NCBI GenBank assembly: GCA_963824385.1
Contig: CAWGPD010000002.1
Span: 160,001 to 224,000 of the forward strand
Direction of reading: 5' to 3'
Length of the DNA: 64,000 nt
Source of the DNA: an uncultured Nitrososphaerota archaeon
GTDB taxonomy: Archaea; Thermoproteota; Nitrososphaeria; Nitrososphaerales; Nitrosopumilaceae
Shown here: positions 39,001 through 42,000 of the stretch, one piece after another
How positions within the stretch are numbered: position 1 is the first letter of the stretch
How the letters are laid out: each line of letters opens with the position of its first letter
Made by a program: the position numbers

Positions 39001-42000
39001 GAGATTAAATTTTTTATAAAAAGTTTAGAGCTTGAGAGATTCTTTTAATCCCTTGTATCTATTTCTGATTGTTACCTCAGTTACTCCTGCGGCTTGTGCA
39101 ACATCTTTCTGTGTTTTGTTTTCTCCATTCATAACACATGACAAATACAATGCAGCAGCTGCAAGTCCCATTGGATCCTTTCCTGCAGAAATCTCAATTT
39201 CTGCAGCATCTTTTAGGATCTGAAGAGCTCTTCTTTTTGTTTTCTCACTCAAACCAGCTTTACTTGCAATTCTTGCAACACATTTTATTGGATCAACAAC
39301 TGGCATTTTCAAATCAAGTTCTCGCAACAAAAGTCTGTAACATCTTGCAACATCTTTTCGTTTAATATTGATTCCATTTGCAACATCAGTAAGTGTTCTT
39401 GGAGTTTCAGTATCTCTACATGCTGCATACAATGCAGCAGCTACAAGTCCTGGAATTGATCTGCCTCTGACAAGGCCTTTGTCAAGTGCCTTTCTGTAAA
39501 TATAAGCAGTTTTTTCAATTACTGCATCAGATAATGCAAGTTTGTCTTTTAATCTATCAAGCTCACTGAAAGCTTGTCTAAAGTTTCTATCAACTGGCTC
39601 ATGAACTTGACTTCTGCTATCCCAAGTTCTCAATCTCTCAATTGTACTTTTCATAGATGCAGAAAGTGGTTTTCCAGATGCATCTTTGTCGGCAGGACCA
39701 ATTATTGTTGCAAGTCCCATATCATGCATTGCTAGTGAAGTTGGAGTTCCAGTTCTACTTCGATCTTCGTGTTCCTCTTTAGAAAATGATCTCCATTCTG
39801 GACCAGATTCTTCTACACGTTCAGTAAGTACAAAACCGCAACCTCCACAAAACATTTCTCCTGTAGTATTATCAGTTACCATTGGACCTTTTCCACAACG
39901 AGGACAACGTCCGCCGCCACCAAAAGATTCGCGAGCCATTTTATATCTTATAAGAATTTCGGTTAACATAGATAAAAAGGTTTAACTATGAGTAGGAATT
40001 GTAGAATTTATTAAAATTTAATAAGAATCTTATGGAAATTGTAATAATTACATTCTAAATATATAGAAATTATAATTTATGGATTACATTCTTTTTGGAA
40101 TAATCTATTTTTTTTGAATTAATGATTGTTCTAAATTTATTTATCTTGGGACATCTCAATACTATTTTAATTTATTAAATATTATAATTATTTTTCAAAA
40201 AATTATTTCAAAATTATTTGCGGTCTGATGCAAAACCTTAAATACATTTTCTTTGAAGAAGCGATACTAAATAAAATGGAACAATGTCCACTTTGTTGTG
40301 AATTTCAGCAGTCGAATCAGGCGCTGACAATTCACCTAAAGAAAATCCATCCACAGAGAAATACTGCAATTCAGATAATGCGATAAATCTCTGTGCGGGG
40401 ATAGGCGTAGGATATATCCAATCGAGGTTATCCACGAATTTTTGGTTTTTTATTAAAAATAGAGAAAAGTGTATGCTGAATTGAATGTAAACCATTTGTC
40501 AGCTAAATTTAGCACACTGTTAACCGTATTTCACACCTGAAATTAAAAACCAATTAATTTAGTGATATTCATGACATCATTTGGAAATAACTGGCAAAAA
40601 CCACAAACACCAAGCATTGGTGAAAAATTTCATGATGCAATAAAGCCACAAGGAGCATTAAAACCAAGACTGGAGAATGGTGTAAAACGACTCCAGACTC
40701 AAATTGGAAAACTTGATGGAATGATTACAAAACTAAAACAAAAAGATGCAAAGTTATTCCAAAGAATTGTAATTGCAACACAAAATCATGATATGGTTGC
40801 AAGTAAGGTTTTATCAAAAGAATTATCTGAAGTTAGAAAAGTAACAAAACTTTTAGGAAATGCTCGAATTGCTCTAGAACAGATTGAGCCTAGACTTACC
40901 ACATTCCACGACTTGGGAGATACTGTGGTAACTATAATGCCAACAATAGGTTTGATGAAAAACCTAAGATCCTCGCTTGTTAAATTTATGCCTGAAGCAG
41001 ACCATGAGACTAACTGGAATGACCGAAATGCTAGGTGGTCTTATGACTGATACATTCCACAGTGGAGACTTTGGAGTTGACTCTGAGGCTACAAGTGAAG
41101 AATCAGAAAAGATTCTTCAAGAAGCTTCAGCAGTTGCAGAGGCAGCAGTCAACGACAAACTACCTTCTATGCCTGTGGGTCAATCTTCCTCCTCGACCCG
41201 TTACGTCTAGACTACCTTGTGTGATAATCTGTAGCGGAAATATATCTGGAATAAGACTAGTGACACTACTAGTATAACTGAAGCAGAAATGAACATAGTT
41301 GCATATCCTAGGAATTTTGTTAGCTCACCAGTTACAAGTGAACCAACAAATATTCCAACTCCTGTTACTGCACTATTTACCCCTAGATACTTTCCTTCAA
41401 ATCCTTGTGGAATACTCTTGAAAAATATAACCGAACTAGATGTACTAAAAATTGAAAATCCGATTACCATTAGACAAGCTGATGCTATTGTCATTGCAAA
41501 TCCAGATATTCCTGTCAGGAAAAGTAATGAAACAGCAGGAATAGCTACTGCTAAAATTCGTGGTATGTATGCTAATATCGTTGACCTTTCTTCTCCAAAC
41601 TTTGATATTATTTTTGGAGCAATAAAGAAAACCAATAGCATCAGCTACAGTTTGAATCATATAGTTTAGAAATACATCGGAGTTTGAAAAATTTTGATTT
41701 TTCAAAAATGGCGTCCAGGCAGTAAAGTAAATGTTACTGCCAAAATAGAAAAAAAATGACGCCAAATAAAATATGCCTATCTCATGACTTATCTTTCCTC
41801 TAAATATTGTAGTTATGTGTCTAAAATCATATGCCTCCAGGGCCTTTGGAAAGACAAAATGATAGTTGCTAATTGAATAACGCAGACCATGTAAAGAGTG
41901 TGCAATACTGCTTCTCTCAAGATGGATTCCATCACCTTTTACGGCTGTACTTAAAATCATAGATGCACCACTTGATGCAGCACATATTAGAAAATATGGT

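Follow-up and report, generated by a model that had tools for sequence, protein, structure and literature searches.

The window ESCRT-III gene is preceded by a short box that a survey of this genome had proposed as a cell-division regulon motif. The locus raises the question of what the box is, which genes share it and which protein may read it. The window, by which we mean the whole 64,000-nucleotide stretch analyzed, comprises positions 160001-224000 of contig C2 of an uncultured Nitrososphaerota archaeon (genome G000; 1.68 Mb assembly, 86% complete). Taken as a whole, the explanation that we favor, with moderate confidence, is that the box belongs to a tandem operator for a dimeric activator, and that the division genes of this archaeon are divided between two regulons.

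ESCRT-III genes of the genome

Among named relatives, the window ESCRT-III protein was closest to Nitrosotalea records (97% to Ca. N. devanaterra), with Nitrosotenuis, Nitrosarchaeum and Nitrosopumilus coming next, and on this basis we took the family sampled here (f1) to be Nitrosopumilaceae. The ESCRT-III genes of G000 fall into four classes, A through D (Table 1). Compared with its twin, the window class B gene has one extra base, which splits its frame; since many genes of this assembly are split, the extra base may be an assembly error. The Snf7-like helical core was recognized by the NCBIfam ESCRT-III model (E=3e-47 for class A, 1.5e-41 for C and 5e-13 for D), and Pfam Snf7 matches were weak and under the cut-off. 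Classes A and B probably correspond to Nmar_0029/0061 and class C to Nmar_0816, going by the identity pattern in the available text of PMC3684127, and class D is probably the short paralogue beside cdvC described in PMC5840170; we infer this mapping to Nitrosopumilus maritimus from pattern and context rather than from a sequence match. The survey's finding had labelled two loci 'cdvB3-type'. This label does not hold for class C, which scored 142.1 bits with the Sulfolobales CdvB1/B2 model NF041005 and 34.9 bits with the CdvB3 model NF041009 (cut-off 170). The former model was itself matched below its cut-off of 350 by class A (160.8 bits), C and D (48.9 bits). As used here, the labels cdvB1/B2 and cdvB3 do not stand for orthologues of the Sulfolobus genes, judging from these scores and from what is accessible of PMC5840170. 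A search of viral contigs found no relative.

Table 1. Locations of the genes and promoter elements discussed in the text (C2 and C4, contigs of G000)
Feature	Location	Strand	Remarks
Class A ESCRT-III gene	C2:231771
Class B ESCRT-III (Snf7/CdvB-family) gene	window 40571..41210	+	frame split near 41009
Class B twin	C4:305532		intact; 86% nucleotide identity to window gene
Class C ESCRT-III gene (third paralogue)	C4:124722
Class D ESCRT-III gene	C4:218220-218783		in operon with cdvC
Distal 16-bp site, GTYAG-N6-TTA(G/Y)Y	window 40498..40513	+	A/T-rich center; the TTGT box of the survey
Proximal 16-bp pseudo-palindrome, GTNNA-N6-TNNAC	window 40519..40534	+	21 bp (two turns) from distal site
BRE position	window 40535..40541	+	ACCTGAA in window gene, ACC.ccc in class A; no canonical A-rich BRE
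Putative TATA box, ATTAAAAA	window 40542..40549	+	29 bp before start codon; leaderless geometry
Divergent TFB paralogue, other than the gar1-linked one	window 39025..39939	-	context only
Winged-helix-like protein (131 aa)	window 1304..1699	+	beside cdc6 and probable replication origin

A tandem element upstream of classes A and B

The sequence TTGTNAGYNAAATTTW occurs exactly three times in G000 (C2:200496, C2:231696 and, on the minus strand, C4:305607), each time 75 bp before an ESCRT-III start, as the survey had reported. All three sites are real, although two of them belong to the recent class B twins. The box forms part of a larger element made up of tandem 16-bp pseudo-palindromes (GTNAR-N6-YTNAC) set 21 bp apart, and the last C of the proximal one lies 8 bp before the TATA 8-mer. 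Classes A and B have a common register, with GTYAG..AAATTT at -73, GTNNA-N6-TNNAC at -52 and ATTAAG at -29. In class B the distal and proximal sites are alike when compared in one frame (p=0.0017 for B_s1 vs B_s2). Conserved columns are restricted to the palindromic GT..A and T..AC positions while the spacers are free, as expected of a dimeric protein; the 21-bp spacing puts both sites on one face of the helix, and the distance from the element to TATA is fixed. The proximal pattern fits 51 of 60 class A and 46 of 53 class B regions. It takes the place of the second element proposed by the survey, GTKRA-N7-WCAC, which fits one of the three G000 sites, 9/60 A regions and 29/53 B regions. The survey's first box is exact at the three G000 sites, but across the family it fits only 37/60 A and 21/53 B regions.

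The canonical BRE, VRAAA, is defined for Pyrococcus (PMC5937170). A VRAAA-like run is absent from the A, cdvA, C and D promoters, and B has tgaA, to be read against a noisy genome-wide BRE baseline. Alignments of the A, B, C, D and cdvA promoters contained no conserved box downstream of TATA, and a sigma-70 scan returned nothing above chance. In the A, B, C and D promoters alike the TATA 8-mer follows the last AC at a distance of 8 bp, hinting at a recruitment geometry that the four may have in common.

We measured specificity with a 56-bp matrix whose training set included the three G000 sites. These scored 59.7, 57.6 and 43.5 bits, compared to 11.4 bits for the next site in G000 and 19.2 bits for the best site in the reversed-genome control, in keeping with the survey's claim that the box is nearly absent elsewhere in the genome. 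Full, operator-only and half-site matrices revealed no further full A/B sites in G000. For conservation we used 133 upstream regions, obtained from 130 of ~190 family matches that were fetched besides the loci of G000 itself. The element was kept in register (-74..-79, >20 bits) in 98 of the 113 A/B-type regions (A, 52/60; B, 46/53), which came from 61 family genomes and 25 genera, so that its retention at both paralogues across the family, also claimed by the survey, stands; the misses include a third, divergent clade of extra copies. The exact 37-bp pattern GTYAGNNAAATTT-N8-GTNNA-N6-TNNAC was found in 105 of 151 family genomes, at one to three sites each, a tally that counts three unpublished genomes (G104, G113 and G125) used here only. 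It was present in 21 of 24 genera (g8, g11 and g17 are those without it), and the reversed pattern gave a single match across all 151 genomes. Where genes had been mapped, every exact match (56/56) lay 72-74 bp before an A/B start.

Information content over -78..-37 was 33.1 bits for class A and 23.5 bits for class B, compared to 6.9-8.4 bits for five unrelated neighbor promoters; three other comparison sets were higher than these five, namely the gene sharing the gap of A (16.7), a partly coding set (15.4) and a winged-helix gene that carries a motif of its own (34.4). The twin B promoters are 25% identical upstream of the element and 73% identical within it. Taken together, these findings support the view that the A/B element is conserved and position-locked, and that it is probably regulatory, at two ESCRT-III paralogues.

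History of the duplication

In a quick IQ-TREE maximum likelihood tree, classes A and B grouped together in a clade found in f1 only (SH-aLRT 96), their single-copy sisters belonging to families f14, f3 and f8. Since A and B constitute one family-level clade, the shared box was copied once and kept rather than gained independently, which bears out the survey's own caution that part of the likeness between paralogues is inherited. Locus A retains ancestral neighbors, including a divergent glutamate-racemase-like gene. Locus B is a moved copy that is without this gene and has kept the element, sharing 25 conserved columns with A in register. Among 13 single-copy A/B-type genes of the three sister families, which belong to the same order, the proximal site was present in register above the 99th background percentile in nine, and the distal site in none. 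The proximal site would thus appear to be older than the family. The distal site would have become fixed in the ancestor of the family, and duplication of the ESCRT-III gene presumably carried the whole promoter along.

Related sites at cdvA and gar1-tfb

The survey had listed cdvA as being without a strong box. We found a related site, GYNAR-N6-YTNRC, at -73..-75 in 18 of 22 cdvA genera, with the half-sites and 6-bp spacer of the A/B element. cdvA has a strong footprint of its own (23.8 bits) and ranked 7th of 1598 G000 promoters with an A/B-only model, ranks 1-4 being training sites. The match to this model had p=0.0005 by column shuffle, a procedure that breaks A/T tracts and so flatters p-values; two control sets reached p 0.016-0.036. 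Comparing the whole cdvA footprint to the whole A/B footprint gave no significant likeness (p 0.07-0.83). Single-site matrix likenesses were modest (p 0.008-0.02 among 36 pairs), and the 21/22-bp spacing and the windows had been chosen after cdvA had been seen.

Since a preprint places Sulfolobus TFB2 at the gar1-tfb2 and cdv promoters, we predicted a site at gar1-tfb before looking there. A site at -55/-56 was present in 20 of 24 genera; it is looser than the A/B sites, with a spacer of 7 instead of 6 in 12/24. Ranked among 2123 upstream regions, the gar1-tfb median reached the 98.8th percentile, with 17 of the 24 genera above the 95th, and the score of 7.0 compares to medians of -4.7 to 1.1 for 14 control gene sets. 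By tblastn, a tfb lies behind gar1 in 24 of 33 loci and was not detected in nine. The gar1-linked TFB forms a long branch among 17 TFBs and is designated TFB2 by synteny; the upstream regions of these 17 TFBs contained no consistent site. Taken together, the sites at cdvA and gar1-tfb suggest that these genes belong with A and B to one division-gene regulon. The case for a regulon rests on these two sites and on the second operator described below, which tracks trmB, all of them points that the survey's finding had missed or denied.

The trmB (3.3) and ftsZ (2.1) promoters also scored above all controls, their likeness to A/B being weak. In ftsZ, which the survey too had called weak, there is a footprint that is in part the stop codon of the upstream gene, and its likeness to A/B varied with the window (p 0.006 or 0.18), so we did not count it as a carrier. 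We likewise set aside sepF, 7th of 1446 in a joint model, because its site was not kept in any of the five relatives checked. Other high-ranking G000 promoters belong to tusA-like, DtxR-adjacent and CBS-domain genes.

A second operator and a TrmB-family protein

The survey had seen no A/B footprint at its two cdvB3-type loci. These loci have an operator of their own, whose four-box matrices are unrelated to the A/B matrices (p 0.09-0.83). The class C promoter carries TGTNAC-N10-TGTNAC-N4-GTNACA-N9-GTNACA before TTTAAA, and four-box operators scored above control at only two G000 sites, the class C promoter and the class D/cdvC locus. At the latter, the operator lies between the operon of class D, an arCOG08707-like gene (labelled by position; PMC10936438) and cdvC, and a divergent TrmB-family gene (C4:218943-220118; about 390 aa).

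In 17 of 19 relatives trmB and class D are divergent to each other, and most other families having trmB carry it divergent to an ESCRT-III gene. In the distant family f22, found within a phylum sample of 121 genomes, it was present in 12/12 genomes, each time divergent to a boxed ESCRT-III gene (scores 29.9-35.0). Among the 18 genomes examined first, all of them TrmB-positive, the class C four-box score was 25-36 in 17 and 11.7 in the remaining one. It was -3.0 to 7.9 in eight of nine family genomes without a trmB match, the exception being G031 (150 contigs), which kept the four boxes (30.3). G121, the sole trmB-bearing member among nine of genus g22, also kept them (32.6). The exact three-box pattern occurred in 36/44 TrmB-positive vs 5/36 TrmB-negative genomes, or 34/44 vs 1/36 once coding matches were subtracted (two of these were translated, the others being assigned on their resemblance to the TFB-coding match). 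Since kin are not independent, the joint loss of the four boxes and trmB within f1 amounts to about three losses. Four genomes of f3 have trmB next to a gene without four boxes.

The protein matched PF01978 with 55.1 bits (cut-off 25.6). Its predicted structure (pLDDT 85) includes a winged helix-turn-helix, a coiled coil, a PLD-like effector domain and an extra C-terminal domain, and Foldseek placed it closest to TrmBL2 and TrmB (TrmBL2, E=2e-13). It fell outside the TrmBL1/Tgr subfamily (45 bits, cut-off 650), from which the N4 spacer and TGTNAC half-site also set the operator apart, and it scored below all NCBIfam TrmB cut-offs. These findings suggest that the adjacent TrmB-family protein probably reads the four-box operator, and that class C and the ESCRT-III/arCOG08707-like/cdvC operon would make up a second regulon. 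The two operators sort the ESCRT-III paralogues of these abundant nitrifying archaea into two regulatory classes, and a named protein with a putative DNA target and natural gene losses makes binding testable in vitro without genetics.

Alternative readings of the A/B element

The A/B element might be real and act positively, and nevertheless serve membrane stress or vesicle formation, in which case the likeness to cdvA and gar1-tfb would be due to chance or to a looser shared factor. We regard this as unlikely. It is favored by a report that proteins of the A/B type (probably Nmar_0029/0061) did not polymerise in yeast (available text of PMC3684127) and by a review, in its accessible parts, according to which no N. 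maritimus CdvB paralogue formed a mid-cell band (PMC5840170), as well as by the confinement of the full element in G000 to the A/B genes and the non-significant comparison of whole footprints with cdvA. It does not readily accommodate the cdvA site, with its shared position and spacer, the gar1-tfb site, which was predicted in advance and stood out from 14 controls, or the Nmar_0029 signal that, according to a review, rose with the CdvA-CdvC band. Nor do we think it at all probable that the element, without any separate activator, is a signature marking promoters used by a specialised TFB, either the gar1-linked TFB2 orthologue or the one adjacent to class B. Sulfolobus TFB2 binds the cdvABC, cdvB1/2 and its own gar1-tfb2 promoters (bioRxiv 10.64898/2026.09.06.749720, as far as its text is accessible). 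G000 possesses a long-branch gar1-linked TFB, and the AC-to-TATA distance shared by all four classes would suit such a signature. However, the element is palindromic and reaches ~45 bp upstream of TATA, which is beyond a BRE contact. A TFB is directly divergent to class B, 0.3-0.7 kb away, in only 8/21 loci, and the same preprint describes similar BREs for TFB1 and TFB2. A role for TFB2 downstream of an activator would be compatible with the explanation that we favor. The motif figure of the preprint could bear on the TFB reading.

About as improbable, or slightly more so, is a repressor that would keep TFB away by binding right next to the BRE. The proximal site runs to one base before the BRE position, and the Sulfolobales division regulators aCcr1-3 are repressors; yet most aCcr1 boxes are placed between TATA and the start codon (PMC9976878 and PMC13199686, as available), whereas here there is no conservation downstream of TATA, the two sites lie upstream of it and the BRE looks weak, a layout of the activator type. 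That the same TrmB protein reads both operator types has already been largely refuted and can be given hardly any weight. Pyrococcus TrmB does bind two different promoters (PMC4158304, in part), and a weak A/B-like site is present in the trmB promoter, but the two matrices are unrelated and seven genomes without trmB (G018, G022, G041, G044, G108, G143 and G163) keep the A/B element intact while losing the class C four boxes. Since the A/B element survives the loss of trmB, another factor would bind it; in G057, also without trmB, the element is degenerate (8.5 and 18.6 bits). An equally slight chance attaches to explaining the element as an inherited leftover, as an RNA element or as the core promoter of the divergent glutamate-racemase-like gene. 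The gap that it occupies at locus A is indeed short and bidirectional, and its 5' TTTGT could double there as the BRE of the divergent gene. Locus B is without that gene and still matches A in register, and its twin promoters diverge upstream of the element; inner positions of the element do not pair (0.09-0.24), and Rfam gave nothing above chance. Unless start codons were misassigned, the B-locus sequences would refute these three readings.

Mechanism and candidate readers

Returning to the tandem operator, we propose that a dimeric, sequence-specific transcription factor would occupy the two 16-bp pseudo-palindromes on one helix face, the proximal site touching the non-canonical BRE. Activation would most likely proceed by aiding the loading of TFB or TBP, with the geometry of TFB-RF1, Ptr2 or CdrS, so that activator sites might compensate for weak BREs. 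As with TFB-RF1 and Ptr2, the palindrome lies at a fixed distance upstream of BRE/TATA, and sites upstream of TATA at a BRE without an A-rich run correspond to the archaeal activator layout (PMC5937170 and PMC8406309, as far as available) rather than to aCcr1 repression. We infer that a single factor could serve A, B, cdvA and gar1-tfb and tie them to the cell cycle. Regarding the survey's term 'cell-division regulon motif', a position-locked element at two paralogues stands, while the role of the A/B paralogues in division is unproven; the label is uncertain because of the reported failure of N. maritimus paralogues to form a mid-cell band.

A PF01402 search of five genomes for ribbon-helix-helix (RHH) proteins, which could miss divergent members, found a conserved NikR-like protein and other small RHH proteins that were genome-specific; no CdrS-like gene was seen in the ftsZ neighborhood. 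The origin-adjacent winged-helix-like gene was found in 38 of 40 genomes and is preceded by conserved GTTAAC repeats, the only GTTAAC cluster in G000. Its product had no fold match at E<=0.001 (the best rows were winged-helix regulators) and no named Atlas cluster. Its repeats resemble A/B-type half-sites but differ in spacing, and the protein is therefore a candidate only, as yet unproven, for binding them. A more speculative picture, which we put forward tentatively and consider doubtful as it stands, is a two-tier division-gene circuit in Nitrososphaerales that would differ from the RHH-based control of Sulfolobales and haloarchaea. In such a circuit, the cdvC operon and one ESCRT-III gene would be under an ancient effector-sensing TrmB, which, like its operator, is conserved into a distant family of the phylum. 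Sites of the A/B type, at cdvA, gar1-tfb2, two ESCRT-III genes and perhaps trmB, would be read by a second factor, possibly the origin-adjacent winged-helix protein, and origin, metabolism and division would thereby be coupled.

Comparison with known systems

In the open literature that we searched, we found neither motif nor a link between TrmB and ESCRT-III described. The motifs, the split into two regulons and the TrmB assignment appear to be new, while the kind of system is known. In the CdrS regulon of Haloferax volcanii, a symmetric motif 41-110 nt upstream of the division-gene start site is read as activating ftsZ1 (PMC8406309, as available). A symmetric upstream motif at division genes is common to both, but the Haloferax system is FtsZ-based with an RHH protein, whereas here the genes encode ESCRT-III and the conserved RHH protein is NikR-like. 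The aCcr1/2/3 boxes of Sulfolobales resemble our elements in being order-wide at cdvA and of the GT..AC palindromic type; they are described as 9-bp boxes, mostly downstream of TATA and repressing (PMC9976878, PMC13199686, in part). In contrast, our elements consist of 16-bp tandem sites or 6-bp arrays and lie upstream of TATA, and neither is a 9-bp box between TATA and the start codon. TFB2 of Sulfolobus acidocaldarius keeps its gar1 synteny and drives a division wave (bioRxiv 10.64898/2026.09.06.749720). Its candidate targets agree with those here (cdvA, gar1-tfb and additional ESCRT-III genes), and a gar1-linked long-branch TFB exists here too; the accessible text of the preprint reports no upstream palindromic operator for Sulfolobus, whereas two distinct ones are conserved here.

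The second operator shares a TrmB fold and an inverted hexamer (TGTNAC-N4-GTNACA) with the TrmBL1/Tgr motif TGM, TATCAC-N5-GTGATA, which activates when upstream of BRE/TATA, the position that the second operator occupies (PMC4158304, in part). It differs in that its targets are ESCRT-III and Vps4 genes rather than sugar metabolism, that there are four or five boxes with 15/16-10-15 spacing, and that the TrmB protein has the extra C-terminal domain. The available text of the same review leaves the N. maritimus TrmB unspecified. If our assignment is true, a TrmB-type sensor over ESCRT-III/Vps4 would add to CdrS and aCcr1/TFB2 a third archaeal route of division control, one that could connect division to nutrient state. 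With TFB-RF1 of Pyrococcus (PMC5937170, as available) the A/B element shares a palindrome that is set at a conserved distance shortly upstream of the BRE, weak in Pyrococcus and perhaps so here; the TFB-RF1 site is a single 13-bp TCTG-N5-CAGA, unrelated in sequence and target.

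Motifs at ESCRT-III and ftsZ genes

The class D ESCRT-III gene beside trmB has been lost in six genomes of the family (L323, L325, L326, L328, L331 and L337). The adjacent operator of four TGTNAC boxes was gone or decayed in all six, and the trmB promoter footprint was still present in 4 of them. Families f3 and f8 possess an extra ESCRT-III class (L286-L289, L298-L300), which in f3 is the neighbor of trmB. This class carries GTAAA-N5-TTTAC together with GTTRATCAAAT in place of the four boxes, a difference that suggests regulatory rewiring.

A third motif family includes an inverted GATC pair upstream of ftsZ, TTTTAGATC-N7-GATYAAAA (loci L349-L375). 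Its other member is the similar TGATC-N6-GATC, the element that replaces the four-box operator upstream of class C in the trmB-less genus g22 (L379, L380, L492-L494).

Neighborhood of the class B gene

The recurrent neighbors of the class B ESCRT-III gene among the 21 loci include a winged-helix HTH_45 gene (15 loci) and a convergent coiled-coil gene (18 loci). Upstream of the HTH_45 gene, both in the window and at loci L394-L413, lies a strong motif of its own, TGAAAC...GTTCCGCT x2...GTTTCA (34.4 bits), and the gene looks autoregulatory. A duplicated piece of the neighborhood is located at C1:19705-20799 of the same genome (G000), where an HTH_45 gene adjoins part of an ESCRT-III gene that runs on into a zinc-ribbon-like tail.

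Probable replication origin

The interval that separates cdc6 from the gene at 1304 (~830-1300 of the window) is probably a replication origin. Both an AT-rich stretch and conserved GTTAAC repeats are located in this interval.

Features of the window and of other contigs of G000
Feature	Position	Strand	Remark
Two ORB-like repeats	window 1074 and 1136		within putative origin
Three clustered HTH-like genes	window 1304-1699, 2024-2581, 2709-3077		after putative origin
50-aa ORF, presumably AbrB-like	window 1696-1848	minus	after putative origin
36-aa ORF, C2H2-like pattern	window 40276-40386		between divergent TFB gene and class B upstream box
Coiled-coil gene, conserved	window 43231-43825	minus	convergent on class B; split in G000
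Winged-helix gene (HTH_45, Sso10a-like)	window 44526-44813		near class B
Tubulin-family gene	C3:303420-304805		beside coiled-coil ORF
Second MIT-bearing Vps4-like gene	C4:450457-451647
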